A stretch of 58,300 nt of DNA, taken from positions 310,001 to 368,300 of the forward strand of contig QPGO01000084.1 in assembly GCA_008632985.1 (NCBI GenBank), given 5' to 3'. The notes below the pieces were generated by a model, which was not told the origin of the DNA, did no database searches, and saw only the letters and a program-made list of their open reading frames with translations. The translations under genes and the position numbers were made by a program. The stretch comes from Psammoneis japonica (taxonomy: Eukaryota). Positions 14,217 to 58,300 of the stretch are shown in pieces. Positions within the stretch are counted from its first letter, which is position 1; each line of letters opens with the position of its first letter.

Positions 14217-14231
14217 TGGTGCTTCGACACG
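14217..14231 (+). promoter_or_regulatory. Putative primer-binding site
   Basis: TGGTGCTTCGACACG directly after the 5' LTR; TGG is complementary to tRNA CCA; the tRNA is not assigned. Confidence 0.6.
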
Positions 14232-14259
14232 TCATTCGAACACATCATCTTCGGTCTGC

Positions 14260-22855: not shown

Positions 22856-23304
22856 TCTTTCTTGGCAACGTAGAGGATATAATTTATATCCTATTCGCCG
22901 GATAGCATATAAAATCGAATTTGATTAGTCCGACTGAAAAAAATCTTGATGTACCCCCTTTGGAAAATTTCAGTCCATCTAATCAAATGATTTTTATGTG
23001 TTTCAAAGGACATTTATATATATTGTATAGAAAGAGCGCGTATGACTTTAAATAATAAAAACACTCCAGTAACGAATGTTATAGATTTGTCATGATGTGC
23101 GAACACACGCCTACAACCGATAAGATGAACGCGATACATAGTCTCTATTCCAGAAGATTGAAGATCTTAAATCACCAATCACAAAGCACATAGCATCGCA
23201 TTGCTTGCTGTTGCTGTCTTTTGAATGCGGTGAGTTTGTTTGTTTCTATATGCTCCTCTATATGCTCCTCAACGATCGCTTTTGCCGTTAATGTCATCTC
23301 ACTG

Positions 23305-25771: not shown

Positions 25772-26489
25772 GGGGCGTTATGTTGGTCATTGACAGCAGA
25801 GTAGCTTTCCCAACAACACTCATTACAATTGGCCGTGGTCTCTCGTAATGGTCTCTCGTCACTGTCATAGAACTGATTTTGCTGCAGCTTGTTTGTCGCG
25901 ATCTGTCATTGCAACTGCAGTTATCTACTGGGTTTCCTTGGTGTCTGCGATGGTTTCATGGACTTGTTCTCAACGTCAAGAATCGGTCCAATGGCAAACT
26001 CATTCTGAGGTCGATGTGGCGTGGGACGGTCGTGGTGTTTGGTGCGCGTTTTCCAGTTTGCCACGACCATCGCGGGCAAACGTATCGGAGGGAAGTTTCG
26101 AGAAATCAAATCTCTGTAGAATTCTACGGCTACTCTCCGTATGCAACTTCTTGTTCAAGTTAAAGTTGCGCCAAAATCGTCGGAATTTTGGATTTCCCCT
26201 CTCGTGGAGTCACTAACCCCCCCAAAATCCTTCGACGAGGGAGGATTAGGAATGGCGCTACGACGACACGGTGCTAATCTCAGCGACATACGTAGCATCG
26301 TAGAAATGTGTTCTTTGTACCAGAAGCACATGTTTATGAATGGCACATTGCGCTGGCAGCGCTGCCGACAGATTTCTCTTTGTTCCCACACTTCACCGTG
26401 ACGAAAAAAATGGTGAGTCGCCGTTGCTTTCGACGATGTCGTTTGCCAGAAGTGATGAGTACGAGTGTGATGTTTTGACGAATTATTGC

Positions 26490-26955
26490 TAATCAACGTC
26501 AATGCTAACGACATTGCTAAAAACATCACACTTGCATTCATCAGGAGACCGTTTTTGGACAATGCTGCTGATGGCACCGCTGCAAAGTAAAGTGGGACGT
26601 GCAGCTGCTGTTGATGATATAGTTTGCCGGAACCAATGTGTGTGAGGACCATGTTTTGATGCAATGTTGCCGTTTAATCTCAGTGCCAATGATGCGTGTA
26701 AAAACATTGCTCTCGCATTCATCAGGAGACCGTTCTTGGACAATGCTGCTGTTGGCACCGTCACAAAGCTAAATGGCACGTGCAGCTGCTGTTGATGATA
26801 TAGTTTGCCGAAAACAACAAGTGTGAGGACCATGTTTTGATGAAACATTGGCGTTCAATGTCAATGCTAACTGCACATGTAAAAACATCGCTCTCGCATT
26901 ATTCAGGAGACCGTTTTGTGACGACCCTGCTGTTGGCTGTTGGCACCGCGGCAAA
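26490..26955. repeat. ~180-bp tandem repeat, about 2.5-3 units
   Basis: catt(c/a)atcaggagaccgtt...gctgttggcaccg recurs near 26535, 26717 and 26897. Confidence 0.85.
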
Positions 26956-38734: not shown

Positions 38735-40317
38735 CTATCGTGTGATGTACGAGAACACGGAAGAACGTCTGATATTCCTCGTGTAAATCTCCGATAGCCA
38801 AATGCGCTCTAGTAGCAGTACTTGATTCATGGCAACTAGAGTAGACTCTTTGGTCGACTAATAGAAATACTTCGTACGCAAGCTTTACACAATATCTGTT
38901 CAGGACAGTAATACAACCACTACACGGTTAAACCTCGGCCCTACTAAATTATCACTAGACGCAACGGAATGCGTGACAGCATTGGAGCCGCTGTCCATGA
39001 CGTCCGATTCCGTTCATGCACAACTCAGCAACAAGTCTTTTTTGCTGTCTTTGTCTCCAGCAAGTGCAGCTTGTGGTCAATTCCCAAGAACCAGAGATGC
39101 TTTGTTGACTCCCAGCAGCAGATGGCAAGCAATTGCCTTGCTTCCAGTGTGGCTGTTCCATGCCCTTTTTGTGATCATGTCAAGCCAAAATTGCTTGTGT
39201 TTTCCACTCCTGCCTGTGCTGTCACATTGATGATTGGGTGAGTTCACACATGCATCAATCTGAACACAGATGAAAAAACAACTGGTTTTAAATTCTGCTG
39301 CACCTTTGCCCAGCATTGCCAGCACCGGCTGACCCACCACACTTCCAGTGCAGCACCAAGTGTGTGCCAGAAAAAAAGAGCTAGCCAGGAGATGGCACCC
39401 AATGAGTGCAGCTGGCAATGGTGCAGGCACCCCAAAGCATGAGCACTTTGTTGCCAATTTTGGGCTCTCACTCAATCGTGGACAAAGTGCTGCAACCCAG
39501 TTCCTGATTTGGGTTGTTGAGTGTGTCTTGCTGCACTCCTCTGCCTGATCCACAATGAGCACCAGCTGGTCTTTGGCCAGGCACTCCTGGCATTTGTTGC
39601 GTGTGGGCTGGCCCTGAAATCTGCCTCAGCCAGTTCTTGTTTTCTGACTGGAACTGTCTCAGCAAGGCCAAGTCACACAACAGTTGAGCCAAGCATTGCG
39701 GGGTGACAAACTGTTGCCAGCCAACCTCAGTGTGCACATCTCAAAGGGCTCAATCATGACACTCTGCCTCAGCATCCAAAAAGCTTCAACGGCCCTCTCT
39801 TTGAGACAAGTGAGTGCCCCAACATTCTAACATCCAAGTCACCAAGACATCGTTGAGGATCCAGAACAGCAGCACATCTGTGCTCAACATTTGCTCAGGT
39901 CTGACAAGGCCAGCCATCTCTGGAAAGACAAAAGATGTCACAGACTTGACTTGTCATTGCAGCTCCACTCCAGATCATGTGGCAGCAGCTGTTCAAGCTC
40001 AAGCCCAGCTGCTTGGTCTGTTGCACCAAAAAGGCAGGGTTCCAAGGCAGCTTTCACACTTTTTGCTTGCAAAGCACTGTCATGCATGGTGAGCCTGTCT
40101 GAAGGTGCCTGTTGCTTCAGCATCAGATTGCTTGCATGTTCCTGGGACATTGAATTGACAAATTTTCCTCAAAGTTCAGTCAACACCTGTGATCTGCTGG
40201 GAGTTTTGACCACTCACCAAAACACCCCACCAACCAATTTGCTGCTGCCTTTCACCCAAGCTGCTCTGTGTTCCTGAGAACATGAGCTGTGCACTAAAAT
40301 GTGTTCATTGTGCAGCT

Positions 40318-40715
40318 GACGCGTTCCAGCCCTAGAGGTGGGAGCTCGTAGCACTGACGTGTGACAACAATAATTTTTGTCATCCGTCGTATGTTTCGTA
40401 CGTAGCTTTCTACGTGTGATATTTAAAAAATATTGTCCAGACTCGCTGTTTTGCGAAGCCCCAGACGTTTTATATAACAAATTTATAGAAACAATAATAC
40501 GCCAGTTACATTCTTCAATGTCTGAAGAATGTAACTGGCTAAGTAAAAAATGATGTACTTCAATCATGTGCGAGTTTGTGCGTTCGCAAAATTGCCTCAT
40601 TTTCTGTTGGCGATCATTGACATTTTAATTACCGTATAATTTTACTACGGAGCGCGCACGTAGAAGTCTACGGGCCCAATGTCACACGGATTCCCACCTA
40701 CGTCTGGAACGCGTC
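40318..40715 (+). mobile_element. MITE copy A (398 bp)
   Basis: TIRs GACGCGTTCCAG / CTGGAACGCGTC, 4-bp TSD AGCT; near-identical to 55329-55725. Confidence 0.92.
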
Positions 40716-40881
40716 AGCTCCACAAAATCAGCAATGCAGTGACAAGCACAGCAGATTGTCTTGAAAATTGTGTGCTCACAGTGTGCCTCATGCACTCTGT
40801 TCATTGGATGGCCATGCCTTCCTCACAGCATCAGATTGTGGCTCACCCTCCACAAAGAGACAACTCACTCTCTGAGCCACT

Positions 40882-41260
40882 TGCAATGTGCGTTGTCATG
40901 CACGCATTGCATGTGTGTGTCTGTGTGTTGAACAAAAGTGTGCTTCAATCGCACGTCAATCGTGGGTTCGTACGAAGTGCAGATCAGTCACACAGAAGTG
41001 ATTGGATGTCGAGAATCGCAAATGCGATCGTGCGATGATGTTGACATCTTGTGTGTCAATGTCAATCACATCCGGACAATCTGTCGTCACGATCACATTC
41101 TCCGAAAGGCCTTTTGTCTGCAGGAGCAGCACAAAAGGTTTGGGCCATTGAGAACCCGTTCGGAGAAACCCAAAATGATTGCGCAGAAACAGGTCTCATA
41201 ATTTTCACTTTTTGAACTTCATTCTACTTTCGTTTGCACTCGTTCTTCGAGCACAGTGCA
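40882..41260 (+). repeat. 5' LTR of gypsy 2
   Basis: Aligns to 45650-46000 with a 28-bp indel and many TG/CA swaps. Confidence 0.92.
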
Positions 41261-41269
41261 TTGTGTGTG

Positions 41270-42422
41270 CACACCACAGAAGGTGACAAGTTCAAGGTGA
41301 AGCTTTCACCTCATGCAACCAACGCCAAAACTTCCTTGAGGCAGGAGAAAATCGTCCCTCAACCGCTGGAATCGAACTCCGAGCCGAAGAGCCTCAAACC
41401 AAGCCAGCACCTCAAGACAGAGCAACGTTTTCATCCCGAGAAGAAGGACAGCCGCACCTGCACCATCAATGTTGAGTGCCACAAGAAACAAGGTGTCCCC
41501 AAGTTCATCGAATTTCTCAAGAGCTACGATCAACTTCCAGTGGGCCAGAACATCAGAAAGCAATCTGACAAATTTTGTCTCATGCGCATGTTGCTCCAAG
41601 GAGACGCCCTGCGTGCTTTCGAGAATGCGGCAGCGAACCTTGAAGACGAATCTGCGGAAGGAAGCTTCGAGAAATGCCCACAACATCTCACGAGGCATGT
41701 GTTTCCCAAGAACGCACTTTCGGTGCAGAAACGTTGTTTGCGTCGTGATCTCAAGAAGCCGGAGTCCATGAAAGTGCGCGAAATTGCTGCTTGGGTCCAG
41801 GAAGTCAACGAAGACCTCAAGTTCTGTCCTCCCTTTGGGAAGGAACAGAAGATCGAGGACGACGAGCTCAAGGACATCCTCTTCAACCTTGCACCTCGAA
41901 AGTGGCAGCGTCAGTCGACCATCCAGGGTTTCGAAATTTTGAAGCATGCCCATGACGAGTTGGTTGAGTTCTTGGAGCACCTGGAGGTCGCAGAAGACAT
42001 GTTTGATGGCATTCATGCCAAGGCTGATGGCAGTGGCGGCACTGCATCAAAAGCCAAGAGTGGTTCCCAACGTGGTTCCAAAAATGGTCACCAACATGGT
42101 GCCGAAAAATCTCAGTCCGAGAAGTGGTGCATTTCATGCGAGAAATCCACTCATGACACGGACAAGTGCTGGTCGATCAAAAGACTTGCGAAAGAAACGG
42201 CGCCGTTCAAATGGCAATCGCACGTGGTCTCGTCGCGACAACGACAACGCCGCTCGCAAAGAAGAGTTGAATGCCATGGCGATCCAAGCAGTTCAAAAAA
42301 TGCTCAAAGCGAGTTCTTCGAACAATGACAAAAAACACAAGAGCAAAGATTGTGATTCTGACACCCTTGACGAGGAAAATTGTCAGTTTGAAAAAATGAC
42401 GCGCAGTGATTCCGAGGAATGA
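41270..42422 (+). pseudogene. gag: gypsy 2 Gag, one frameshift near 42200
   Basis: RMLLQGDALRAF...HVFPKNALSVQKRCLRRDLKKP; knuckle WCISCEKSTHDTDKC; start not defined. Confidence 0.8.
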
Positions 42423-45400
42423 CTTGCACCGCAAGAGGAGTCTTGTGCTCTGCTGGATGTTGGGAAGCCCAGAAAAAGGGCCAAAGCAATTCACACCAGT
42501 CCAGCAGTCGTCGCCTGCATGAATGCTTCATTGGGTGAGGCGAAAAACAAGCCTCTGCGCGTTCTCCTCGACAGCGGAACATCGTCAACCACAATTTTGC
42601 GCAAATTCACGCGGAAACTCAGAACACAAGCATCCGCCACCAAACTCTGGGAAACCAAAGGAGGGCTCTTCACGACTGATGGTCGATGTAAGATCCAATT
42701 CTCCTCACCCGAATTTGACAAACACAAGATGATTGAAACAACGGCACATGTTGATGACTCCCCTTCTTCTTCGAGTCGTCATGATGTGATCATGGGACGC
42801 GACTTAATGTCAAGTCTTGGGATGACATTGGACTTCTCGAATGAAGAAATTAAGTGGGAAGATGCAACTGCTCCTGTGAAGAATGTTGGCACACTCTTCG
42901 ATGCCGATGTTTTTAAGTTGATTGCCGATCACATTGAGGAATCTCATGCAGTGATCAGTCTTAATGACAGGGTCAATCGGATCCTTGACTCAGACTGTCA
43001 CGCTGCAAACCTCAACAATGTGACCGCAGCAGCCACTCATCTAACTCCTGAAGAGCAGAAGCAGTTGAACTTCCTCTTAAAAAGATTTGAAAACCTTTTC
43101 AATGGTTCTCTGGGCAAATGGACCGGGAAACCGGTGGATTTAAAGTTGAAATCGGGCGTGAGTCCGTGTTATGCCAAACCATTTCCCGTGCCACAAGCCT
43201 TGGAGGCGACCACTCGCAAGGAGGTTGAAAGACTGTGCAAGTTGAAAGTCTCAAGAAAAACAAACTGTTCTGAATGGGCGGCTCCAACCTTCATTCAACC
43301 CAAGAAAAATGGCAGAGTTCGGTTCTTGTCCGACTTTCGAGAGCCAAACAAGAGGTTAATTCGCACTCCGTTTCCTCCACCCAACATTCAGGACATGCTG
43401 CAGAAGCTTGAAGGCTTCATGCATGCAACGTCCCTGGATTTAAACATGGGACACTGTCATGTCGAATTGACGCCGCGTGCACGTCGCTTGTGCACGATCG
43501 TCATGCCTTGGGGCAAATGTGAGTGCTGTAGACTCCCGATGGGAATCTGTGGAGCTCCAGATATTTTCCAAGAGCACATGAGTGAGCTCATGGCAGGTCT
43601 GGAGTTCGTCAGAACTCGCATTGACGACATGTTGTGTCTTGCAAAAAGTGATTTTCAAGACCACCTCAAGAAGCTTGAAACGGTGTTCTTACGCCTAGAA
43701 CAAGCCGGATTGAAGGTCAACGCCGAGAAGTCCTTTTTCACTAAACCCGAAGCAGACTATCTAGGCTTTCACATCACCCGCAAGGGCATCAGTCCGATTC
43801 CAAAAAAAATGGAAGCGATTCACGCGATCGCAACTCCCAAAACTCGCAAGGAATTGCGACGCTTTATCGGCATGATCAACTACTGTCGAGACATGTGGCC
43901 TCGACGATCTCATGTTTTAGCTCCTTTAGCCAAACTCACTTCTACCCAAGTAAAGTGGCAATGGACCGAAACAGAACAAAAAGCCTTCGAAAATATGAAG
44001 CGCATCATCTCCAAAGATATACTATTATCATACCCGAATTTTAATATACCCTTTGAGATATATACCGATGCTAGTAAATCTCAATTGGGGGCGGTTATTA
44101 CTCAGAAAAACCGACCAATTGCCTTCTACAGCCGCAAGCTGAATGGAGCGCAGACGCGTTATACTACAACGGAAAAAGAGCTATTGTCCATAGTGGAGAC
44201 GTTAAAAGAGTTCCGAAATATACTGTTTGGCCAACAGATAAATATATATACGGATCACAAAAATCTCACACACAAAAATTTCACAACGGACAGAGTCATG
44301 CGTTGGCGTCTAATAATAGAAGAATACAGTCCCGAAATAATATACCTTGAGGGCAAGGCAAATATTGTCGCAGACGCGATTAGCCGACTTACTATGAAGA
44401 AAATAGAACCTATGGAAACCCTCAGCACAGAAGAGCTAGCTGAAAAGGTCCTACCAAAATCCTACGACAATGTCTTTCCGTTAAATTACAAAGTTCTTGA
44501 TTATGAACAAAAACGGGATAAAGACATTCTCTCCCAATTGTCAAATAAGACGTTTCATACGAAGACTTTTCGTGGAGGCGAGCGAGACCGGTTGCTCATA
44601 TGTCATAAGGATAAAATTGTCGTCCCGAGGACGTTACAAAAGGCAGTGATAGATTGGTGTCATACATACCTTCTTCACCCTGGCATAAATCGAACAGAAG
44701 AAACAATCTCACAACACCTATGGTGGTCCACCTTACGTGAAGACATACGAAAATACGTGTCGAGATGTGAGACGTGCCAAAAATTCAAAAAGAAACACAA
44801 GAAATATGGACATTCACCTCCTGGGTGCGCAGAATCCGTGCCATGGGAACGACTGTGTGTGGACCTCATTGGGCCATACAAAATGCGTCGTAAGGGAAAG
44901 AAAAAACCCCCAGTCCTGAAATGTTTGACTGTGATCGATCCAGCAACCGGATGGTTTGAAGTTGTGGAAATCCCAAACAAGGAGTCCACAACTGTGGCTG
45001 GACCATTAGAACGAACATGGCCAAGCAGATGTCCTTGGCCATCGTTTGTCACATGTGACCGTGGAAGTGAGTTCATCGGACACCAATTTAGAGAAATGGT
45101 GCAAGATGATTGTGGCATTAAAGTCAAGCCTGTGACCACACGAAATCCACAAGCAAACGCAATTGTTGAACGCGTGCATCAAGCGCTGGGGAACATGCTC
45201 CGCACACTTGATTTGCAACATGCATCTCTAGATGCTGAGGATCCTTTCGCTGGAATGCCATCAGCAGCAGCCTTTGCGGCACGTTCTGCGCATCACACCA
45301 CTGCGCAAGCTGCACCAGGACAACTGGTCTTCAATGGAGACATGACATTTGACGTCCAACATGTCGCGGACTGGAAATCAATCCAGCAGCGAAAACAAGA

Positions 45401-45623
45401 AATCACAAATAAAAACAACGCTCGAGAGAATGCTCGACGCACTCCTCACACGCGCAGAGTGGGAGAAAAGACACCACTCGAGAAAGACTCGCAAAAATCA
45501 GAACAGCCCCATGTTGGACCGCATGTGACAACAACGGCACACACTGATCGCACAGTGCAGATCAAACGCGGCAATGTTGTTGACACTGTCAATGTTCGTC
45601 GAACAATGCCGTTTAACGACTGA
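42423..45623 (+). pseudogene. pol: gypsy 2 Pol (protease, RT, RNase H, integrase)
   Basis: VLLDSGTS; SLDLNMGHCH, RLPMG, TRIDD; YTDASKSQLG, EKELLSIVE; LLHPG...CETC, CVDLIGP, CDRGSEF, NPQANAIVER. Confidence 0.95.
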
Positions 45624-45649
45624 CTCCAATGTGCAATTGGGGAGGCGAG

Positions 45650-46000
45650 TGCAACATGCGTTGTCATGTGCGCACCATGTGTGCATGTCCACATGTTAAA
45701 CAAAAGCATGTTTCAATCGCACGTCAATCGTGGGTTCGCACAAAGCACAGATCAGTCACACAGAAGTGATTGGATGTCGAGAATCGCAAACGCGATCGCA
45801 TGATGATGTTGACGGACAATCTGTCGTCACGATCATGTTCTCCGAAAGGCCTTTTGTCTGCAGGAGCAGCACAAAAGGTTTGGGCCATTGAGAACCCGTT
45901 CGGAGAAACCCAAAATGATTGCGCAGAAACAATTCTCACAATTTTCACTTTTTGAACTTCATTCTACTTTCGTTTGCACTCGTTCTTCGAGCACAGTGCA
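45650..46000 (+). repeat. 3' LTR of gypsy 2
   Basis: Follows the PPT; ends in cagtgca and is followed by TSD CACT. Confidence 0.92.
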
Positions 46001-47629
46001 CACTCACTCCAAAGCTTCCCAATCAGAAAAGTGGCTTGCTTTGTTGTGTTGGAACTGTGGCTGCAAGCATCGTTCTAAAAATGTCTGAGGCTGAAAGCAT
46101 CAGTGTCAAAATGTCTTTGAGACGCACTTTCATTCCTTTTCTGTGAGAAAGGCAAAAAAGCCTCTGAAAGATTTTCTCGTCCACAAAGCAAAAATTAAAA
46201 CATCTTCTTGTTTCTCTCCCCCCCCCCCCTTCCCCTGCAATCTTTCCACATGTTGCATCTGCTGACCCATCATGCTGTCCCTGGGCAGCTGCAAAATGCC
46301 ACATCACAAGCAATGGAAAGATCAGCAAATGAAATCTGTGCATTGCTGTCAGAACTCTGTTTTCACATCATGGCCATGTTTGCACCTCAAATGTTGGCAA
46401 CAAGAATGGAGCAAGTTGACGCCCTTGCATTGCATTGCCAGTGGGTAGAAGAGGAGAACACTTGCACCAAACAGAGCCTGAGCCCCAAGAAGCAAAGCTG
46501 CCAACAACTGCAGTTCTCTGCACAGAGTCAGTTGGGCTGTCTGGTGCAAATGAATCACTCAAATTCTGAGAATGATCGTTGAGGGCATTGGAGTTCACAT
46601 GGGAACTGGCACATGGAACTGTTTTTCAGAAGAGCTCAAAACTGCTGAAAATTGGGATTGCTGATGGCGGCATCTTTGAACATTCACCCAGCTTTGCACA
46701 AAGACAATTTGTTGTGAATTGCACATAAAGCACTCACACTGGAAAAGAAATGTTGAACAATGAGTGAGTTTGTGCAGCGCACTTTTTGGCAGCAAACCAG
46801 ACAAAAAAGAGTGTTCGCGAACCTTGCTGCAGCCACAAAAATGGCATGAGCCATCAAACACAATGTGGTTGTCTGCATCACTGGTGGCCCCACCACCCCA
46901 CACACTGCTGGCTGCCACAATGCAGAATTGCCATGCCGCCCCAGCCACAGGGCCCTGTGCACGCATGCGCTGTTTGACAGCAACAACCAAAGCAGGCGCT
47001 GTGGTGCAACAGCACACACCCACACCAACAAAGAAAGACAAGTGGCCAATGCTCCCTGCAGGCCTGGTTAAATCTCGAACTCCATTCTCGCGTCCATTCT
47101 TCGCAGGATGCAAATGGTTTGTTGTGTCCGTTTCTCTTCTGGCTGGAGCTTTTGACTGCTTCGCCACATTGCCTTGAGCATGGAGTCCATCCGCTGGCTC
47201 ACATTGGGGGTTCACCGCCTTCATGGCCCACTTGCAAACTTCATCATCTCTTTGATTTTGAAAATTTCATTTCGTTGTTGCACACAAATTTTGATGTCAT
47301 GATTGGCACCTGGATTGCCTCTGTTGGCGACACTGCTGTCCGTTGGAAATTGGCTCATTTTGGCGTGCCGGCACAGCCTTTCTTTGATTTTGAAACTTTT
47401 GTCTGATTGTTGTGTTCAATGTTTCAATGTTCTGATTGGCACTTGGATCACCTCTGTTGGTGATGCCACCATCCGTTGGAAATCAGCTCATTTCAGCACG
47501 CGTGCCCATTGTTTGGGGCATGCCATCCGCCCGCTGGGATGTCGGTCTGCCACCTTGCATGTGCTGTGCAGCAGGCTAATTTCACTTCCGCACTGCATTG
47601 TTTCACTTGAGTGTCGGGGCAATTTGCAC

Positions 47630-48018
47630 GACGCGTTCCAGGTCTAGGTGGGACCTCGCACTACTGAACTGTGACATCGATAGTTTTTTGAATCTCGTCG
47701 TATGTCGCGCACGTAGAATTCTACGTGATTTTTTGATATTTTGTGTCATTTTACGGTACACTTATTGAGCGATCCGTCCAAAAACTTTTGACATTTTTTG
47801 TTACAGCGCGATTCTATAATGTCTTAAGAATCGCGTAGGGCAGGTGCATTTGCAAAAACGTCGAGTGGTAAGAGGCATAATTGCACCACAAACTTGGCCG
47901 TTTATTTGATGTTGAAGATAAATATATCCATTAATTAAATTCTTGTACTACGGAGCTCGCACGTAGAATTCTACGGGCCAAATGTCACACGGAGTCCCAC
48001 CTAGGGCTGGAACGCGTC
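47630..48018 (+). mobile_element. MITE copy C (389 bp; same ends, different interior)
   Basis: Same 12-bp TIRs, TSD GCAC, subterminal palindrome CACGTAGAATTCTACGTG at 47710-47727. Confidence 0.9.
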
Positions 48019-48316
48019 GCACTGTCCTCAATGTGCAGAAACCTTCAAAACCCGCCCGACGATTGGATGGGTTCACTGATGTCATGGACATTCATGAGGA
48101 TGCACACATCATCACGACCCAATCCGAGTTGCTCAACTGCTCATGACTTTGCGGCAGCAGCATGGGCACGGCCCACCATCTCTTGCAGCTGGGAGTTCCA
48201 GTTCCGGCTTCAATTCTGTTTTTTTCTTTTTTTCTTTTTTTCTGGCTGGCGCTGCTGCCTCCGATGACATGGGCACGCACACTGCACTTTGTGCAGTGTG
48301 TCGGCAGCCAAGATGG

Positions 48317-48541
48317 TCTGTCCACACAGTGTGGGGGAACAAAATGGACGGAATTAGATCTGCAGATTTGTTCCCTGTTTTCCAGCTGCTGTCTCAGCAG
48401 CACCACACACGAACATGTGTGCTCGTGTGTGTTTCCACACATTGGATGTGTTCGTGCATTGATTGTTGCATCCATTCGGCAGCTTGCACTGTGTCATGTC
48501 ATCGGGGTTGCAGCCAAGCTGAGGTGGTGGCAGGGAATCTG
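48317..48541 (+). repeat. TA-mutated duplicate of 49859-50085
   Basis: Collinear ~225-bp direct repeat; 16 of the 17 TAs of the other copy appear here as TG or CA. Confidence 0.95.
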
Positions 48542-48767
48542 GAAGTCGCAGCAAAAGCACGGAAAGTGCATTGAGTGTCGCACTGGGCACGCTTGCACTT
48601 CTCAGCGTAGAATCTACAATGGGGTCACGTGAACAGGACATCTGAATCCACATGTTGCCCTCTCACTTTCAGTTGAAAAAATGCTTGCTGCCCAGTCAAT
48701 TCAAACACATTAAATTGCTGGGTGCAACGATTGTTCAATGCAGCCACAATTCAACGGAAGGCAGTCA

Positions 48768-49590
48768 CATCGTGGAAAGCATTCCACGACTCAATTCTGT
48801 CGTGGAAAGTCTTTGCTTTCTGCGATGCTGTCGTGGAAAGTCATTGAATGTCGTGGAAAATCATTGGTGACTGCTCATCATGGAAAGTCATTTGTCAAAT
48901 GTTGATGACTGGAAACATCGTGGTTTGACGTCACACACTCTAAATGTCAAAGAGGGGTGAGCCACATTCCATCCAACTGGTGTTGCGCAATCACGCACAC
49001 GGCCTCGAAGCATCGTCGATGCTTCTTGATGCCATGGCAAAACGTCTCCGAAAGGCATGCGAAGTTCTTGATGCGTGCATCAAGGCCTCCTGACGAGACC
49101 GAGCCCGGCTCTTGAACTGGTTGTTCCAAAATCATGTTGGAAAATGGCAAGATTTACAGGCATCAAGGCGTTGCGATGAGATCAAAATTTTGTCATATGA
49201 CCCCATTTTACGTACAGGCATTTACACAAGCCTCGAAAGGTGGAAAGTCATCGTGGAAAGTCACATGACTTTCCACGTTACAATCGTGGAAAGTCTTCAC
49301 TTTCCACGATAGCATCGTGGAAAGGCTATTCCACGATGTACCGGTAATTCTATTCTATCGTGGAAAGTCATTGATCAAAAACGGTCATAATGACCCTCTT
49401 TTAATGAACACTTTATCACTATATATAAAACATTATCACTCAACGGTTGCAACCAAAATTACTTAGGTTGTAAGGGCAATATAAAAAGGGAAATATAAGT
49501 TATTAATAACATATTAATAATTTGATATTTTCATATATATGAATATTATTATAATAAAGTGGAAAGTATCCGCGACAGACTTTCCACGCT
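48768..49590. repeat. Array of TCGTGGAAAG / CTTTCCACGA motifs in both orientations
   Basis: Roughly 15 full or partial copies in clusters at 48770-48890, 49240-49370 and 49559-49590. Confidence 0.85.
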
Positions 49591-50203
49591 TTTGCGGCGA
49601 CTTCCTGCGATTCTCGGAGCCAAAACGGTAGGCCCAGCACAAGGAGAGGATATCTCTTGGGTGGCCGTGCTCTTGGAGGAGTCACCGCGCGATAGTAGCG
49701 CGCAGTAGAAGGCAGACAGGCAGACAGACAGACGGACGACGACGAGAGGCCGCCCCAGTTTCCCTCATTGTGTTTGGCGGACTGCCGGTGACGATGGGAT
49801 CAGTTGCGTCGACCCGATATGGGCCGACAACGCTGAAAATTCCCACCCAGCCCAGCCCTCTGTTCACACAGTGTGGGGGAACAAAATGGACGGAATTAGA
49901 TCCGTAGATTTGTTCCCTGTTTTCTAGCTACTATCTCAGCAGCACCACACGAATATATATGCTCGTATATGTTTGAATAGATTAGATATATTCGTGTATT
50001 GATTGTTGCGTCCATTCGGTAGCTTGCACTGTGTCATGTCATCGGGGTTGTAGCCGGCCAAGCCGAGGCGGTGGCAGGGAATCTGCGATTCACTGCGATT
50101 CACACTCAACAAGCAAGAAGTGCCTCCCAATATTCTCTCCTGTGGTAGTCTATCATACAAAGTACGAACGTCCCGAGTTTTCGGTAACATAAAGGACGAC
50201 TCC

Positions 50204-52456
50204 ATGGCATCCAGAGTTACTACTGAGACTATTGATTGCAGCGAACCTTTGACATATGTGAATGGTTTGACATGTCTTAGGCGAATGAGAAATGTAAAGC
50301 TACCCACAAACAAAGAAGCCAAGGCGAGAAAGCAACAGAGTTATAGCCGACCTCGTAACGGGAAACGTAATTCAAGCGTGGATCCAACGCAACGCGAGGA
50401 AAGAGAAAGAAAACGGATTGGCAGTGCCTGTGACGGGCAAGATGGTGACGGAGCTCGTGCCAATCAAGCCAAAGTACAACGTAGCAACAGCCGACCCAAA
50501 CGCTCACGAAAGCATAAAATTCAAATACGCAGAAATGCAAAAGTGTCTCCAAATCTGAAACCGACCTTGACACCGTGCGACCTAATTCTACCGTCAACAT
50601 CAATTCATTTCTTTAGGGTGTACCACTGTCTTGCAAGAGCAAAGGTAGATGCAGGTATGTATCAATCGGCAGTTGAACTTTGCACTGATGCGTTGTTGTC
50701 GGGGTATTCAGAAATTGTCAAGCAAGTCAAACTCATTCAAAATAACCCGAAGTGCTACTCGTATGAGAGATACGAACGAGCGTTAGAATCACTCGATTCA
50801 GCGAGGACGTGTGTGGCAGGAATGTGGTGCTTGTACGCTCAAACCTTGATATCGATAGCTGACAGATTGGGACAAACGGAACAAACGGAGTCTTCCAGCT
50901 CGTCTCCCCAAAACGGGGTTCACTTAAAGACAACGAACGAGGATGTTCCCAAGAAACGACCAACAAGAGGAGCCAAGGACTTGAAAAGCTGCAAGACTGG
51001 CGAAGACAAAGGACACCAAGGCGAAGCATGCGTTGCACCTTCTGAAATTATCAGTCACGCAGTAAAATCCTTGATAAATGCTGGTTGGTGCCCAATCGTT
51101 GGAAACCACCCATGGATTACGATCGCGCTTTCCAGGTCCGTCTTCCAGTCATACTTAACGAACGATAACGAAGAAACGGTGGCATTTGTCAAGAAAAAGA
51201 TTGGAGTGGCGATCGATGTATGCAACGAGGGAATAATAAAGGCGGACGCTGTCTCGCCAGAGGATTTCACCAGGGAAACAAAATCACTGGATTGTGACGA
51301 AATCGTCTCGTTTCTTTGGAAGTATACCAAAATTCAACCTGAATCTGATAAGGACGACAAAGAGCCATTTGACGACCTTCGTGAGTCGCTCTCGAACCTG
51401 TATTCTATAATACCATGTCTTCAGCAAGCTCTTTCTGCGCGGTTCATGTTTCGTGACGAAGGCGGATCGTACATCTTGGACTATGAAGTGAATCGTTTAC
51501 ACGAACTTAAAGATAGCGTGAGCGAGACTGTGTCCTTGTGCTTGGTGAAGGGAGTCGATTACGATCTTACGTACGGATTTGATAATGAACTTGAGCTCAT
51601 GCGCGCTTTGATACTTGATGAGAGCCCAAAGTCACCGGCGGTCGGCAGTGCGTGCTTGGCTATCGAAAAAGTGGTTCCTCGTAAAGGTCTTGACCTTGGG
51701 GTGGCGTACCGTTCTCAGGAAATATCGTGGGTCCCGGTTGCTGTACGTGATAGAAAAGAGAGAGGTTATCTTGCAAAACAGTCGCCACACCATCGCAGTG
51801 GTTCAAAGTGCAATAGATCCTGTTGTCGCGGTGGCACCGGGTCTTTGTGGAATCTTCCAAGTCGTGCCGTCTACTCAAATGTTGAGTACGTCCCTCAAAA
51901 TGAGCTTTCTTCACTATCTCCCTCTTTATGGTGCAGGAAAGACAACGGCGAGTTACTCAGAATGATAGAGACCAAGACTCGTTCCTCGCTCGGTTACACC
52001 ATTGGACAACTTGTCGATCTGCTGGATTACGCGATCGAGTTATTTGAGGTGGATGAGTTCGAACTTCAACGGGCAAGAGGACTCCAACGGCAAGGAGAAA
52101 TGTCTATTGAACCAAGGATTTCTCCAGTAGCTCCACATTTTGTGGGTCAAGTTGGATTGAGGTGCCTGTTTTGCAGTAAATACGACGTCTTTGGCGCTAC
52201 TGGGTCTTTCGTCTTTCCAGAAAATCGAAAGGGGGTGTTGAAAGACGCATGCGATCTGTGCTTCTATCATCTTGATTCTTGTACAATGATGCCCCTGGAC
52301 GCACGCAAGCGGTACGAGGAATACAGGGGGAGAGTATCATTTGCGAGCCAACACGTAAGAGACTTTTGGATCGACACCTGTCGTTCAATGCTGCGATCAA
52401 AGAAAAAGGGGCAAGGAATTTGCTGGAGGAAAGTCAGCAGGATTAGCGGAAAATGA
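50204..52456 (+). CDS. Hypothetical protein with a C-terminal diatom-type GQVGLRC..C / H...C / W Cys-His domain
   Basis: Uninterrupted 750-aa frame, normal Tyr content, GQVGLRCLFC...FVFP...HLDSCTMMP...FW; start codon uncertain. Confidence 0.75.
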   Translation: MASRVTTETIDCSEPLTYVNGLTCLRRMRNVKLPTNKEAKARKQQSYSRPRNGKRNSSVDPTQREERERKRIGSACDGQDGDGARANQAKVQRSNSRPKRSRKHKIQIRRNAKVSPNLKPTLTPCDLILPSTSIHFFRVYHCLARAKVDAGMYQSAVELCTDALLSGYSEIVKQVKLIQNNPKCYSYERYERALESLDSARTCVAGMWCLYAQTLISIADRLGQTEQTESSSSSPQNGVHLKTTNEDVPKKRPTRGAKDLKSCKTGEDKGHQGEACVAPSEIISHAVKSLINAGWCPIVGNHPWITIALSRSVFQSYLTNDNEETVAFVKKKIGVAIDVCNEGIIKADAVSPEDFTRETKSLDCDEIVSFLWKYTKIQPESDKDDKEPFDDLRESLSNLYSIIPCLQQALSARFMFRDEGGSYILDYEVNRLHELKDSVSETVSLCLVKGVDYDLTYGFDNELELMRALILDESPKSPAVGSACLAIEKVVPRKGLDLGVAYRSQEISWVPVAVRDRKERGYLAKQSPHHRSGSKCNRSCCRGGTGSLWNLPSRAVYSNVEYVPQNELSSLSPSLWCRKDNGELLRMIETKTRSSLGYTIGQLVDLLDYAIELFEVDEFELQRARGLQRQGEMSIEPRISPVAPHFVGQVGLRCLFCSKYDVFGATGSFVFPENRKGVLKDACDLCFYHLDSCTMMPLDARKRYEEYRGRVSFASQHVRDFWIDTCRSMLRSKKKGQGICWRKVSRISGK

Positions 52457-52599
52457 GCAGACCCCATCGTCCGCGGCGTCTTGCGTGGGGATGACCTGCA
52501 ACGGGAAATGATGTTACCACTGCTCTAGCACTGTCGTCGGCAAAATACCTGGTCTTCGACCATAATAGTAGAGAGTCTTGCACATGCGTAAAGCCTGAC

Positions 52600-55500
52600 A
52601 CTCACCAACACGTTTTCAGCTGTTGTTTCTGCTACCGCCAACTTCAGGCGAAGTTTTTCCAAGGTCCAGCATGCTGGTGCTGCAAGCTCCAAGCACCCAG
52701 GGCTGATCCTCATCTCTGTGTGAGAGCCACTGTCAAACTTGTTGAACTTTTGCTTGTTTTGCTCTGCACTTTTAAGGCTCAAAACACCGGATTCATGCAG
52801 GGCGGAACTCACTAATTGCAGCTCTGCTTGTTGTGAGAAAAGACATGTTGGCTGTCACCAATGACAAAAGATTAGATCTGCAAAAGTGTGGGCCAAGGCT
52901 GTGTGGTTCAATGGCAAAAAAGAAACAACAAGCCCTCCGCACAGTGACAAAACATGTCTGCCAGGCCAAAAATGCCACAAAAAGAAAATTGGTTTGGGTG
53001 GGGGTTGAAAAAGCTTTTTCTGTGACCTCTGCACCACCAAAAAGACCTGCCAGAGAAACAGGGAGTCCCAAGCAGCATGACCATGAAACACCAAATTTCA
53101 CAATTGTGTGTCTTGTGCAGCTTGTTGCAGCTTGTCAGTGGGGTGGTGCACCAGCCACACACACACACACATCAGCAGTTTTTCTTCTCTGGCCTCAGCT
53201 CCTGCCAGGTGCTTTGTCATGCAACATTGTGTGAAGAAGTGCTCCAAAAGGACCTCAAGCTTGCCACCAAAAGTCAGCCTGTTGGCTGGCTGCCCATCAG
53301 AAGAATGGTTCAAATAACCCACAAAAAGAGGTGGTGTGTCAGCTGCTCACTGAGTGGAAAGCACCAAGGAGACTGGCTCCTGTTTGTGCCATTGCATGCA
53401 AGTGTGGCCAACTGCTGCCCTTTTCTCCCCACAACTTCTTTTGTTTCAAAATGGCAGTGGAAGCCAAAAAGCCACCAGAGAAGCCAAGTGGCCACAGACA
53501 CTCTGTGAAAATGTCTGCACTTTTTCCTGTCTGCTCCTTGCTCTGGGGTTGGAGGGAGCACTTCACAGCTCTGGTGAATCTTTTGTCCACTCCAGATATG
53601 CTCTCAAGATCTGCTTTGCTGGTGCCAAATTTTTTTCTGCTGCCTTCTCTGCTGCTGCGGCCAAATTTGTGGGTGACACTCTGTCAGTTGTGCAAATGCG
53701 GAGGCTCTTTCAAAGCAAAGCAGCACAATCAAGAGGACATTTGGTGACAGAATCTGCACCACACCATGCTTCCCATCCTGCAAGCCTTTTCATGTTTTCA
53801 CCCTCTCTTGTTCATGTCAGCCATTGGCGTCATTGTGCTCACAAGACTCAGAAGCATGGGGAGCTTGATTTGCCACCAAAAAATTCAGGACCAACAACCT
53901 CTCCACTCTTGTCTTTGTGATGTTGCAGCAATCTCTCTCGTGCTCAATTGTCAGAGAGAGGTGCTTTGGGAGAGCCAACGAAGGCACTCATCAACACCCC
54001 ATTGTTGCTGGCTCTGTGCTTTTTCATTCTAAAACATGCAACATCAGAGATTGCTGTGTGCACGCAGCAATGTGTTGGAATGTTGCAAACATTGTGCAAA
54101 CATGATGACTCACTGCCACCAAGCTAAAACACCGCTGATGCAAGACCATGCAGTGGCATTTCTTGATGCATGTGTGCAACCTCTTTTCCTTGATTGGTGG
54201 GACAATGAAGCAATGACAACCAGGGCTCCTGTGGTGACAAGTTGCTGCACTCAGGGAGAAAGCATGAGACGCGACCAGGAGCACTCACTTGTGCTTGAAA
54301 CAATTGCTCTGGGGTGTTGCATTCTGGGCAAGTGATGGATGTGCACTTTTGCTTTCTCACAGGACCGAGCAACCAGTCACCAAACACAAGAACTGTGACA
54401 GAGCAAGAACCCACCCTTTGAGGTGTGTCATCCATGCGGTGTCTGGAGTGTACAGTCGCTGGTCAACCTGTCTGGCAGGAGCTTGCACACAACGCAAACA
54501 TGGGCCAGGGCAGCACAGTGCAAAAAGCCTTGTGGTCACAAATCAAGGACCAGCTTAAAACTGGGACTCTGGTTTGCTGCCACATGTCCGCAGCCAGTGG
54601 GAGCAGCCACAGCGTCCCCTTTTTTTTGTTTGCAACAATCCTGGTCATTGATTGGCTTTCAAGGGAGCACATTTGCTGGTGCAGAGAGCCCAGTTTGTCC
54701 ATGGAGAAGCCTTTGCCCAACCATGCCTTTTTGCACAAGAATTTCACTGTCTGTTCAATGAAGTCAGGGCAAGCCAACAGCCACATGGCCTTTGCATTGT
54801 CGCGGTCATTGGCAGACCACCAGAAAAGCTTGTTGAATTCAATGGATGGATCCACACAAAGCTTTCCACAGAATTCGTGCATTTGGCCTGGGCAATGAGC
54901 AAAGCATGCTTGACAATTGTCTTGGTCTTCATTGTGACGCACACAGTTTGCCCTTCCAATTTGTCAAACAAAGCAAGACCCAGGGCTCTTGTCTGTTTCA
55001 GCTGCCCCACTGAAATGGAGTTTTTGTCTTCAAAGGAGGATTTGGTCTTGCCAGCATGCACATCTTGTGCTCTCCAGGGGTGTGCTGAAAGCAACCCCAA
55101 TCTTCATCTGCCTGTGTGTTCCCCCTGGGAGGGCAGCAATGAAATTTCATGTGATGAAAGTGACTCTTGATGCGTGCTGGGAAGTTTTCAAGGGACATCT
55201 CTTGAAGCTCCCCCTCCTCTGCGTTTTGGACAAATTGTGTTGTGCAGGGCAACACAAGCCTCCTGTTGTCCTTCACAGACCCAACAGAGTTGTCCTTGTT
55301 TTTCATCAAGGGTGGACAATGGCAAAAAGACGCGTTCCAGCCCTAGGTGGGAGCTCGTAGTACTGACGTGTGACAACAATAATTTTTATCATCCGTCGTA
55401 TGTTTCGTACGTAGATTTCTACGTGTGATATTTAAAAAAAAATTGTCCATACTCGCTGTTTTGCGAAGCCCCAGACGTTTTATATAACAAATTTATAGAA

Positions 55501-58050
55501 ACAATAATGCGCCAGTTACATTCTTCAATGTCTGAAGAATGTAACTGGCTAAGTAAAAAATGATGTACTTCAATCATGTGCGAGTTTGTGCGTTCGCAAA
55601 ATTGCCTCATTTTCTGTTGGCGATCATTGACATTTAAATTACCGTATAATTTTACTACGGAGCTCGCACGTAGAAGTCTACGGGCCCAATGTCACACGGA
55701 TTCCCACCTACGTCTGGAACGCGTCAAAAGGCCCACATCCTGCCCTGTTGCCATTGTTCGAATCAACACAACCTGCTGAGAACAAAATGAGCAACTGCAG
55801 TTGGATGGATTTTGAATGCTTGCTTCTGCACATGAAAGATGGAGGGAGAGAGCCACTCTCTTGCATGGCTCCAACAACCACAGCCTCAACAGTGTTGTGC
55901 GGTTGGAGCCACACTTTTGTTTCTTTTTGAGTGGCGCAAAAAATTTGTGTTGAAAAGCATCACCAGCAGGGCAGCTGCAACAAGGTTGGCATGCAACAGA
56001 CTGAAATGGAAATTTTTGCGGCCATCAACATGAGAAGATTTGTGCTCAACTCAAAAATGTTGCTCTGTTGGATGGGCACACACAGACATGCAGGGGTCGT
56101 GCCAATCACCACATGCTGTTTTCCCTCTTTTTTGGGGTCTTTCACACCAATGGAATCTTTCATTCAAGTGCTCTGCATTGTTTTGTGCTGATTGACATGG
56201 GCTGCTTCTGCAGCTTTTGCAACAAGACATGTGTCAAAAACAACACACACATCTGTCAAGACCCCTCAGAAAAATGACAGCCGTTGACCACTTCACCTGT
56301 GGGGTTCCATGTTGCTCCAGCATGTGATGTGCACACCAAACACCAATCACCACGATGAAAAACTTTGTTGCTCGTGTCATCTTGCAGCACCCATTTCAGA
56401 TGCAAGAAAGGCAAGAGAAAAACACACCAACTCAAATGTGCGCGATTTGATTGTGCAATTGGATTTTACATTTGAGATGATTGTTGTGCTTGTTGAGAGT
56501 GCCGTGTGGCCGTCAATGTTGCAATGGCAGTTTTCAATGTTTGTCGGGTGATGGGCGAGCGATGATGAACACTGTTTGTGTGTTGCACGTTCGTCGGTCA
56601 TTTCGCAGACAAGCACAAACAAAATGCCACCACAGCTGCAGCAAAATTGCTGAAACAGGACTCATGTTTTAGCAGATTTTGCTTCAAAGGATCTTTGAGA
56701 TTGCCGTGCATGCCCTCTGCTCTCTGCTCAGCTCCACTGGCCAGCAGGGGCAGAGAGTGAAGAGATTGCCGGCACAGAATGGATGTGGCAGCCAGACAGA
56801 GAGTGGGTGTGCAACAGCGGTTGTTGCCCTCATGGCATGAAGCAGCACAAATGATGAAGGAAGAGGAGGAGGAGGAGGAAAGGACAGGTGCAAAACATGA
56901 GTCACTTGTGTGTCTTTTTCACATGCTCCTCATGAACAAGAGTCTTTGGAGGTTGGCTTTTGTGCACATGCGAGTGCATGCTGTGAAGCACCAAAACACA
57001 TTTTTGACATGTGTGGAAATGGAAAGCATCATTTGAAGGAATTGTCCTTCTCAGTGGCTCTGGCAACTGCTGCAATGGGCAAAAAATGTGCGCTCAAATG
57101 AGTGTGTCCCCGGCAACAAGTGATGCAGCTGCGTGGATGTCTTGAAACAAAACCTGGCAACAAGTGCAGGGTGACACATTGCAGATGAACAAGAAGGAGG
57201 GTCTGTCAAGGACAAAAACACAAGTTTCTCCAGCGGTCATTCTTCTTGGCCCAGCCATCCCTGTTCCTTGGCATGTTGCAAGACAATTTTGGCCAAAACC
57301 TTGAGGAAGGGATCAAGTTCTGCGTGCTTGTCAATGTCAACGACACTTTTCACCAGCACAAGCACTGTTGCAGGCCTTGCAATCCACACCATTGCAACAT
57401 GAGCTTTGTGCAAGACAGTGAAGTTTGTCCAGACCCTTTGCAACCTTGGCCACGTGGCTCAACCATTGGGCTGTGCTCTGAGCTCTTGCAAAAACCGCTT
57501 TCTCCGATCCAACAAGCATGTGGCCAGCTTCAGCTGCCATTGAAACAGTGACACTTGAGATCATCACTGGCATTGTGAACAGCACACAGAAAAAATTTAC
57601 TCCAACTTGTGTCTCTGGAAGCCTCCCGGACCTCGAACGTGCTGCTGTCCATCACAACAAGCGCAGAGCGTGCCGCACCAATGCGTTGTGCATGGCTGGG
57701 CAAAACCCAGTGTGCATCAATCACATTTAAGACGACTCGAAAACGACAAAAGAATGTAAAAGCAACACTCTCATTGTCTCAGTCCTTTGCCATTGTCATG
57801 GAATGTGACAGCTTCGGAGACAAGAAAAATGGTGAGAGCTTGGGTAATGAGCACAAAATTCGCCCGTTCTCGAGAAAACACCCCGCGCGTTGAAACCGCT
57901 GTCGCCACACGCGTGCTGTGCACTGTGCAGCATTGGCGGTGAGTTGACGTGCTAGAAGAAAGCGTGGACAGATGTTCGCTTGGCCGGTTTCCAAGTGGAC
58001 CGAACATCATCGAGACAGGATGCATCGGTTTCTTTAGCAAACAAAAACAA
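52600..58050. other. TpA- and CpG-depleted hypermutated domain 3, content unidentified
   Basis: Almost no TA outside the MITE; many overlapping Cys/His-rich spurious ORFs. Confidence 0.85.
55329..55725 (+). mobile_element. MITE copy B (397 bp)
   Basis: Same TIRs, TSD AAAA, near-identical to copy A. Confidence 0.92.
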
Positions 58051-58300
58051 TTAGTCGATGCGTGGACAAATAGTACAAGCAATAATGTACTAAAAGTTCC
58101 TGGGTTCGATATCTTTCGCTGCTGCTACTAAACGGAAAGGACCATGGCAGTGCGGGGCTCGTGTCCTTTGAGAGCCTCGGAGAGACAAAACAAAAGTAAG
58201 ACTACGTTACAGATACTTTAGTCGCTACGTTCCAAGGAATCATGCAACGTCCACGTTGTTTGGACATCTGCCACCGTTCGAGTACAGTCGTCGGAGACCA

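Follow-up and report, generated by a model that had tools for sequence, protein, structure and literature searches.

Evidence for a TpA-directed transition process acting in place on silent-repeat tracts of a probable diatom contig

The window analysed here, namely the whole 58,300-base stretch of contig QPGO01000084.1, alternates between DNA of normal dinucleotide composition and long tracts from which the dinucleotide TpA (TA) has been almost completely erased, with one copy of a short repeat lying inside such a tract and another just outside it. Its genic DNA, which carries HIT, aldo-keto reductase, Mpv17/PMP22 and DEAD-box helicase pieces recognised by Pfam, has a TA observed/expected ratio (o/e) of 0.57-0.65, with CpG at about 1.0 and CA/TG at about 1.2, whereas in the TA-free tracts TA o/e falls to 0.02-0.09 and CA/TG o/e reaches 1.4-1.9. 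The compositional domain on which the original prediction was built is thus real. TA-free DNA makes up about 26 kb of the 58-kb window, and the spared islands are the gene-bearing stretches plus flanks of a few hundred bases to either side. The tracts hold two Gypsy elements, a GH47 fragment, half a DNA transposon and unclassifiable DNA; besides the GH47 piece, a Pfam scan of the 91 open reading frames (ORFs) of at least 110 codons across the window gave no match in the remaining tracts. As delimited by TA o/e, the tracts are the following (here and below, features listed without a strand have none assigned).

7220-22856: TA-free tract
7220-14030: part D1a of the preceding tract, TA o/e 0.05, CpG o/e 0.47, with the longest TA-free run
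38956-40295: TA-free tract D2, TA o/e 0.05, CpG o/e 0.16
40882-42689: TA-free tract
45410-47577: TA-free tract
48020-49155: TA-free tract D4, holding repeat copy A, with 5 TpA in 1136 bases
52873-55328 and 55727-57598: TA-free tracts, listed together as D5 and D6 (52873-57598), TA o/e 0.02-0.04, CpG o/e 0.15-0.30, interrupted by an inserted element at 55329-55726

The longest run without a single TpA measures 3063 bases (9491-12554), for which log10 P is -54.9 at the background TpA frequency of 0.040. Tract D4 has a TA o/e of 0.07, with CA at 1.82, TG at 1.61 and CpG at 0.68. The repeat pair at its edge comprises the following features.

48317-48541: copy A of a repeat unit of about 231 bases, inside the TA-free tract 48020-49155
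48542-49604: element of 1063 bases with 26-nucleotide terminal inverted repeats (TIRs), GAAGTCGC...GGAAAGT
49859-50091: copy B of the repeat unit, in the TA-normal island 49156-52872
50120-52456, forward strand: orphan ORF of 778 codons, first ATG at 50204, directly downstream of B and of normal composition

When the window is compared with itself, A and B match with 86.9% identity over 229 columns (E = 4e-74), the fourth-longest of 17 internal matches, and the collinear alignment proposed from inspection of the letters is recovered by global alignment at 89.2% identity across 223 aligned bases, with two indels of 2 and 4 bases. Copy B has 17 TpA and 11 CpG dinucleotides, and A keeps a single TpA. 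Among the 16 aligned TpAs of B, nine read TG in A, six read CA and one, within TTAG, is retained; the seventeenth falls at the 4-base indel, where an alternative gap placement of equal score (3 mismatches each) turns it into a seventh TA>CA change. The earlier count by hand, 16 of 17 TpAs converted (9 TG, 7 CA, TTAG kept), is reproduced in this way. Of the 11 aligned CpGs of B, six are kept in A, three read TG and two CA; since the alternative gap placement drops one CpG>CA case into the indel, 4-5 of 11 have changed, in line with the previous estimate of about 4 in 10. Counted per base, the copies differ at 15/32 positions inside the TpAs of B, at 5/22 inside its CpGs and at 4/169 elsewhere, so that few other sites differ, as had been stated (Fisher's exact test, TpA versus other positions, p = 1e-10; CpG versus other positions, p = 0.0012). 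Taken as dinucleotides, TpA loss (15/16) runs ahead of CpG decay (5/11; p = 0.009), an ordering that also agrees with the prediction and is stronger in the two Gypsy elements. The TG and CA outcomes are interleaved along A (7 runs versus 8.9 expected, p = 0.22 in a runs test), so that both strands were hit many times without a strand-coordinated burst. Editing of the APOBEC type was considered as a candidate and rejected, as the changes lie at A and T and these runs show no strand coordination.

The pair had been described as a 225-bp duplication. Its homology is real, but it belongs to a small repeat family and does not consist of two copies only: in contigs from a public run placed on the window, through which other genomic copies were seen, A and B are both covered at several-fold higher summed depth, and further, diverged copies are present. 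The stretch occurs in three runs of one sample, with no RNA run listed among them. Copy B is a spared paralogue of A and not its literal precursor. A conserved 23-mer of the 225-base repeat gave no match in a metagenome scan, and nothing was found when the whole window was scanned for Rfam families and tRNAs; the unit is no known RNA gene.

The composition of the two copies bears on which of them is altered. The summed CA and TG fraction of A (0.254) exceeds that of every one of 1018 equally long background windows, whereas that of B (0.155) stands at the 63rd percentile; A is thus the abnormal copy and B an ordinary one. A further genomic copy among the matches listed has CA at 49958-49959, a site that reads TG in A and TA in B. 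Repeat-induced point mutation (RIP) represents the classic repeat-directed dinucleotide mutator, and a RIP-like C>T process at CpA/TpG might have made B rich in TA, the TG/CA version of A then being ancestral. Two observations favour this possibility and count against TA as the original state: the TpA fraction of B is rather high for the background, at the 95.5th percentile, and at 49933 most other copies among the matches listed have G, like A (five contigs). The G at 49933 does not reverse the direction, because independent hits on different copies lead to the same TG or CA; the site lies in CTAT, in which only the top strand offers the preferred context described below (5'-T-A-Y-3'), and TG is the predicted product. 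The comparison with other copies, which the original prediction had suggested as a check of the ancestral state, therefore gave a divided answer, the CA at 49958-49959 fitting independent hits and the G at 49933 matching A, which at face value is the outcome that the prediction had named as refuting it. Against a RIP-like origin, the CA and TG content of B is ordinary and that of A is the outlier, the TA o/e of the tracts is far under the baseline of about 0.6, which an absence of RIP cannot yield, the CpG differences would need T>C changes in B, and the third copy has CA where A has TG. The Gypsy elements add to these arguments.

14031-22856, forward strand: Gypsy element G1, with 187-base long terminal repeats (LTRs) at 14031-14217 and 22670-22856 and a pol frame at 17270-20959
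40882-46000, forward strand: Gypsy element G2, with LTRs at 40882-41260 and 45650-46000 and a pol frame at 42519-45623

The pol region of G2 (42423-45620) was aligned with the first 40 of 120 listed homologues, with identities of at most 58%, and the 30 columns in which at least 70% of these homologues have Tyr (codon TAY) were examined. These columns read Tyr in 10 cases, Cys in 9, His in 7, Arg in 2, Ser in 1 and Phe in 1, whereas 350 of 401 columns are unchanged for residues whose codons leave no room for an internal TA (Fisher p = 1.5e-10), Phe being kept in 25/26, Pro in 38/39 and Gly in 34/38. By codon logic, Cys results from TAY>TGY and His from TAY>CAY, and the accompanying changes of Ile to Thr or Met and of Leu to Pro or Ser obey the same TpA rule. 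The reverse transcriptase (RT) motifs are ruined accordingly: LDLNMGHCHV stands where ...GYYH. is expected (YY>HC), GKCECCRLPMG stands for GKYEY.RLPMG (KYEY>KCEC) and RIDD replaces YIDD, from which it follows that this copy is dead and its TA-free state derived. Conserved Tyr columns that have become Cys or His in a TA-free pol count against a RIP-like origin of the TA-rich version, and we regard that origin as very improbable. Tyrosine columns, LTR discordance (see below), base composition and the third copy at 49958-49959 together support TA as the ancestral and TG/CA as the presumably derived state, as had been predicted.

The catalytic Tyr of the YIDD motif has become Arg in G2, as in 2/30 of the conserved Tyr columns overall; a change from Tyr to Arg means that both bases of one TpA were altered (TA>CG), either by two hits or by a later second change.

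Comparison of the LTRs dates the changes with respect to insertion. The LTR pair of G2 is discordant at 8 aligned sites, one copy having TG and its partner CA; TA faces CA or TG at 3 sites, and there are four CpG-related differences and 20 shared CpGs. The eight discordant sites can be accounted for by a TA ancestor that was hit independently in each LTR; a CpG ancestor would require many more single CpG losses than are present. In G1, 4/6 differences between the LTRs fall on TpA sites. The changes thus took place after integration, on chromosomal DNA.

As a whole, G1 retains 43 TpA in 8826 bases (TA o/e 0.09, CpG o/e 0.98). Its sense strand is rich in C and A (C 2719 versus G 1870; A 2412 versus T 1825), and CA (1019) exceeds TG (532) in number, yet the observed/expected ratios of the two are alike (1.37 versus 1.38). 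Its pol frame is enriched in Cys (59) as well as His (49). One-strand editing of the cDNA type was considered for this element and rejected on the grounds of these equal ratios and of the joint rise of Cys and His; the equal ratios suggest that the strand asymmetry reflects composition.

The flanking bases of the sites that escaped define a context rule. Residual TpAs of the tracts (85 in 26,043 bases) were compared with the background tetranucleotide spectrum, strand-symmetrised, and survival was found to be 0.43 for TTAA, 0.22 for CTAA/TTAG, 0.12 for CTAG, 0.09 for CTAC/GTAG, 0.08 for GTAA/TTAC, 0.05 for ATAA/TTAT, 0.03 for GTAC, 0.009 for ATAT, 0.006 for ATAC/GTAT and 0 for ATAG/CTAT. A two-strand multiplicative model gives the A in 5'-T-A-X-3' a hazard of 2.9 when X is T, 1.7 when it is C, 1.0 when it is G and 0.46 when it is A, and improves on a single-rate model with a likelihood ratio of 92.6 (3 degrees of freedom). 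The products can be checked at 33 paired sites from six repeat pairs in which one copy keeps TA: 15/33 offer T-A-Y on one strand only, and the predicted product is found at 13/15 (TG right in 6/7, CA in 7/8). The process therefore prefers a pyrimidine 3' of the A, that is, T-A-Y. In the TTAG retained in copy A, the A is followed by a purine on either strand.

Loss of TpA is separable from the decay of CpG. Both Gypsy elements combine a TA o/e of 0.04-0.10 with a CpG o/e of about 1 (0.93-1.15), versus 0.15-0.68 in the other tracts and, more narrowly, 0.15-0.47 in D1a, D2, D3, D5 and D6; CpG>TpG/CpA changes occur in copy A and several tracts, and none are apparent in the two Gypsy elements. A second, slower process has thus left its mark on some tracts, that of A among them, for which deamination of 5-methylcytosine would be the simplest source, and TpA erasure saturates before CpG decay becomes visible.

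The edge of the tract next to copy A runs through a single transposon. The TIR element sits at the end of A, flanked by CTG at 48539-48541 and 49605-49607, and the last six homologous bases of A (CGATTC) resume beyond it at 49608-49613. Excised in silico, it leaves A reading ...GGGAATCTG|CGATTC..., the same as B for six more bases, and one run contig connects 48519 to 49605 without the element. Restored homology and the element-free contig imply that A and B lay only about 0.25 kb apart before the insertion, compared with 1.3 kb now. The left ~610 bases of the element contain 4 TpA, and from 49155 onward TpA occurs every few bases; this switch of composition places the tract edge inside one element, about 700 bases before B.

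The same element is non-autonomous; CTG forms its target duplication, and its core, at 49400-49560, is AT-rich. It is dense in subterminal TCGTGGAAAGTC repeats, about 15 in clusters of both orientations, and 15/33 window matches to their core motif (at most one mismatch) fall within 48771-49588. When the left arm is compared with the reverse-complemented right arm, only the termini and the subterminal repeats align, and these too poorly for the arms to serve as another before/after pair.

A family of miniature inverted-repeat transposable elements (MITEs), about 395 bases long with 26-nucleotide TIRs (CGACGCGTTCCAGG...), shows that repeated DNA can stand untouched in the midst of erased tracts.

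40318-40716: MITE copy
47629-48019: MITE copy
55329-55726: MITE copy

All three copies are TA-normal (o/e 0.90-0.92) and CpG-rich (1.55-1.59) inside TA-free DNA, and the first and last are 98% alike over 397 aligned bases. The bins that they occupy have summed depths of 17,000-138,000 versus roughly 60-900 in most bins, figures that derive from 5085 run contigs placed on the window in all and are not a copy number. The spared MITEs either postdate the last episode or are no targets of the process. Because both B and this abundant MITE were spared, the data support the conclusion that repetition alone does not decide targeting, and the earlier claim that chromosomal position matters beyond homology is borne out indirectly, through the edge near 49155 within the TIR transposon and through the MITEs that keep their TpA. 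The copy at 47629-48019 has a middle part unlike that of the other two.

An alternative is that timing and not place was decisive, episodes having hit any repeat while B, the MITEs and a TA-normal island in G2 arrived later or were restored by conversion. The intact and closely similar MITEs agree with this, as do the difference between A and B at about 2% of non-target positions and the activity of the related process of Bigelowiella natans in some lines only, as reported in the preprint cited below. However, the TIR element is one insertion of which only the left part is converted, so that a spatial edge exists whatever the age of B. The island of G2 (about 43800-44800), whose LTRs and both interior ends are TA-free, lies in a single pol frame and is graded, unlike a clean replacement: per 200 bases there are no TpAs over 41600-42600, 1-5 up to 43800, 7-21 within 43800-44800 and from 3 down to 1 beyond. 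An explanation by timing is on balance unlikely, albeit with some claim to attention.

Two further converted sequences are an old MITE fragment and a pseudogene.

9401-9537: old MITE fragment
13272-14006, forward strand: ORF with a piece of a GH47 alpha-mannosidase pseudogene (match about 13392-13817), the C-terminal third in one frame

Where the young MITE copy has nine TpAs, the old fragment reads TG at 4, CA at 2, TA at 1 and something else at 2. The GH47 piece has Cys, Val, Asn, His and His at five Tyr positions of human ER mannosidase. It is a fragment of a host-type gene that stops some 200 bases short of the Gypsy LTR at 14031, and no upstream GH47 exons were found among the ORFs of at least 110 codons.

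These sequences bear on a process at the level of RNA, in which A-to-I editing of transcripts by an ADAR- or ADAT-like enzyme would have been fixed by reverse transcription. Two of the converted elements are indeed retrotransposons, and a 5' U preference is given as typical of A-to-I editors in a preprint (Mettrop et al., bioRxiv 10.64898/2026.01.13.699255). Nevertheless, the eight TG/CA sites show independent conversion of the two LTRs of one element once it had integrated, both strands were hit in an interleaved manner, and the left half of the TIR transposon, the MITE fragment, the pseudogene and copy A were all converted without an RNA copying step. We find the RNA route hardly credible.

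Avoidance of particular dinucleotides is known in viruses and phages, and selection against TpA, for instance to escape a TA-cutting nuclease or a transposon with a TA target, could stand in place of a mutational bias. The TA-free sequences are, however, dead, their RT motifs being destroyed and the GH47 piece broken; both LTRs lost their TpAs independently; and the genes under selection in the window keep a TA o/e of about 0.6. Selection of this kind is extremely improbable.

The genetic code dictates what such changes do to coding sequence. TAA becomes TGA or CAA, TAG becomes TGG or CAG, NTA becomes NTG or NCA, TAY becomes TGY or CAY and, across codon borders, xxT|Axx becomes xxC|Axx or xxT|Gxx. 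No sense codon therefore turns into a stop; the outcome is missense only, with TAA and TAG removed. Saturated tracts consequently retain only TGA stops and fill with many long false frames. Long ORFs crowd all six frames (48 of at least 80 codons in 46000-58300), and the length of an ORF is no evidence of a gene in these tracts.

Some features of the window are recorded as observations in their own right. Within the tract that holds the longest TA-free run, 11001-12000 has a G+C fraction of 0.567, a GC skew of +0.48, a CpG o/e of 0.23 and a CA/TG o/e of 2.1, and the only N of the window lies there, at 11517. In DNA of normal composition, 26470-26937 is a tandem repeat of a 181-base unit (2.6 copies, 79% match), of which degenerate copies run on to about 28150. 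For the ORF at 50120-52456 no Pfam family was recognised, the 8000 candidates scored from 5.8 billion proteins included no homologue, and tblastn detected no decayed second copy near A; its C-terminus is rich in Cys, and paralogous run contigs differ from it at about 15% of the aligned letters (76/486, 30/214).

The identity of the host can be approached through the HIT-domain frame at 23194-23853. Its best match is 64% identical, none of the 120 matches listed is identical, and among these the 12/12 with a visible organism name are diatoms: Attheya, Helicotheca (twice), Thalassiosira (twice), Skeletonema (twice), Cyclotella (twice), Stephanodiscus, Craspedostauros and Chae[toceros]. The 47% G+C and the long intron-free frames of the window presumably fit a diatom as well. 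On the basis of this one conserved protein, the host is probably a diatom, and thus a second lineage.

Taken together, the data very probably reflect a TpA-specific transition that acted in situ and erased TpA in silent-repeat tracts, that of A included, while sparing B, and that may have been enzymatic and regionally targeted. Its specificity and direction, its action on DNA in place, its arrangement in tracts and its context preference are shown in the window. A>G changes on either strand (TpA>TpG or TpA>CpA) have proceeded near completion in the tract of A, whereas B lies beyond the tract edge, in the normal island around the intact 778-codon ORF, and was spared. The same process hit the two Gypsy elements, the GH47 pseudogene, the old MITE fragment and the left half of the transposon. 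The chemistry may be the conversion of adenine to hypoxanthine in DNA by a deaminating enzyme, which the preprint proposes for B. natans, and the targeting may follow a regional state, either silent chromatin or an RNA guide, and not copy number.

Besides the two observations on the other copies and on B given above, several points weigh against this interpretation. Its chemistry and targeting signal are parts that we infer. Some tract edges coincide with element ends: at the right end of G1 the TA-free state stops within about 15 bases, TpAs resuming at 22871, and the edge at 38956 is very sharp, with 35 TpA in 38539-38956 and then none for 333 bases. Such edges would also fit element-directed targeting by homology or small RNA. 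The excess of the trinucleotides TGX matched neither model of the context effect, CpG decay and composition being confounding factors there, and the residual TpAs may be partly new, arising from ordinary C>T change.

A further point concerns the base attacked. TpA is its own complement, so that deamination of adenine and a route directed at thymine look alike in the sequence. Several protist groups possess enzymes that modify thymine, and the same in-situ process could have begun with oxidation or modification of thymine, which would then pair with G and give T>C. As TpA is palindromic, a T>C change on either strand appears as A>G on its partner, and the context rule reads equally well as 5'-R-T-A-3'. 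Nothing in the sequence opposes this route, the case for adenine resting on the U-A precedent of TadA/ADAT-type enzymes discussed in the preprint. We consider attack on thymine quite unlikely, and retain deamination of adenine as the proposed chemistry.

A closely comparable process is described for Bigelowiella natans in a preprint (Mettrop et al., bioRxiv 10.64898/2026.01.13.699255). In mutation-accumulation lines of this alga, 231/302 new single-nucleotide mutations fell in giant-virus and virophage regions; all but one of these were A>G or T>C on TpA, and they arose in some lines only, in real time and at a rate about 1000-fold over background. The genome has 124 clusters poor in TpA and rich in CpA+TpG, with RT and DDE domains in excess; the main target is single-copy, and the authors propose an adenine deaminase similar to ADAT2. 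Both cases share the exclusive TpA>TpG/CpA change, the depletion of TpA and gain of CpA/TpG in multi-kb clusters, and the targeting of mobile or foreign DNA without a requirement for repetition; the activity in B. natans appears episodic, which we list as a shared trait. The host seems to differ, the one host gene tested here matching diatoms at 64-74% and having no identical entry in a database that also contains other MMETSP transcriptome entries. The present tracts differ in being saturated (TA o/e 0.02-0.09 versus 0.45 in the nucleocytoplasmic large DNA virus region of B. natans) and in affecting Gypsy elements, a DNA transposon and a pseudogene, as opposed to giant-virus and virophage inserts. 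In the main text of the preprint, neither a flanking-base preference nor an LTR test is described, and tract edges are not related to element structure, nor TpA loss to CpG.

By the features of that system, every tract here has a TA o/e of 0.02-0.10, and D1a-D6 have a CA/TG o/e of 1.58-1.90; at no more than 1.37-1.60, the two Gypsy elements would partly miss the second cut-off of the preprint. Targets of mobile origin are the two Gypsy elements, the TIR element and the MITE fragment, the GH47 pseudogene having been converted too. Action in place on the chromosome is evident from the independent conversion of LTRs and from the converted transposon half and pseudogene, and confinement to A>G/T>C on TpA from 16/17 TpAs versus 4/169 other positions in the repeat pair and from Cys or His in 16/30 Tyr columns. 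Arrays of (AC)n, of a type reported as common in B. natans, were absent from the window in a tandem-repeat scan. Outside B. natans, a full-text literature search, thin on subscription journals, found the signature unreported in diatoms or any other organism.

Among known systems, RIP of Neurospora and other fungi likewise ruins mobile DNA in place by dinucleotide-specific transitions that leave a strong footprint. Its direction is the reverse, as RIP makes TpA from CpA/TpG and here TpA is destroyed; RIP creates stop codons, which the present process cannot do; RIP hits both copies, whereas here B, 1.3 kb from A, and the most abundant repeat were spared; and nothing in our data points to meiosis or to a DNMT-like enzyme. 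Similarity to APOBEC3 lies in a deaminase-type hypermutation of mobile or viral nucleic acid in a short context, but APOBEC3 converts C to U on single-stranded cDNA before integration in strand-coordinated runs, in contrast to the interleaved changes at A and T after integration seen here. ADAR and the TadA-like ADAT2/3 offer the A>I chemistry and a 5' U/T preference. These enzymes act on RNA, unlike the present process, which acts on DNA and prefers a 3' pyrimidine; ADAR prefers a 3' G, and all ADAT tRNA substrates carry, as far as is known, U33-A34. No gene for an ADAR/ADAT-type deaminase lies within the window. Decay of methylated CpG, finally, is shared by copy A (4-5/11) and several tracts, although both Gypsy elements are TA-free at a CpG o/e of 0.93-1.15.

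The kind of process is therefore known from one alga, and is found here in saturated form over ordinary transposons of what is probably a diatom. New in the present case are the T-A-Y preference, the independence from CpG decay, the absence of new stops and the untouched abundant MITE. Whether the two cases represent one TpA-directed DNA editing defence, a mirror of RIP with a 5'-T-A-Y-3' preference that acts on silent tracts in diatoms (stramenopiles) and in a chlorarachniophyte (Rhizaria), is in our judgement evenly balanced. If so, TpA-directed defence would be an old or repeatedly evolved system of eukaryotic genome defence, and the A/B pair, the discordant LTRs and the half-converted transposon would be natural reporters for the enzyme and its targeting signal. 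Hypermutation from A:T to G:C at one dinucleotide opposes the usual GC>AT bias of spontaneous mutation. For annotation, the tracts yield long false ORFs, and converted genes lose all Tyr codons. The T-A-Y rule, together with action in situ, on both strands and tract by tract, narrows the search for the enzyme, and a natural DNA adenine deaminase that acts on chromatin would be of interest to base-editing research. A second lineage with saturated tracts would make the process a general genome defence and a protist-wide search for it worthwhile.

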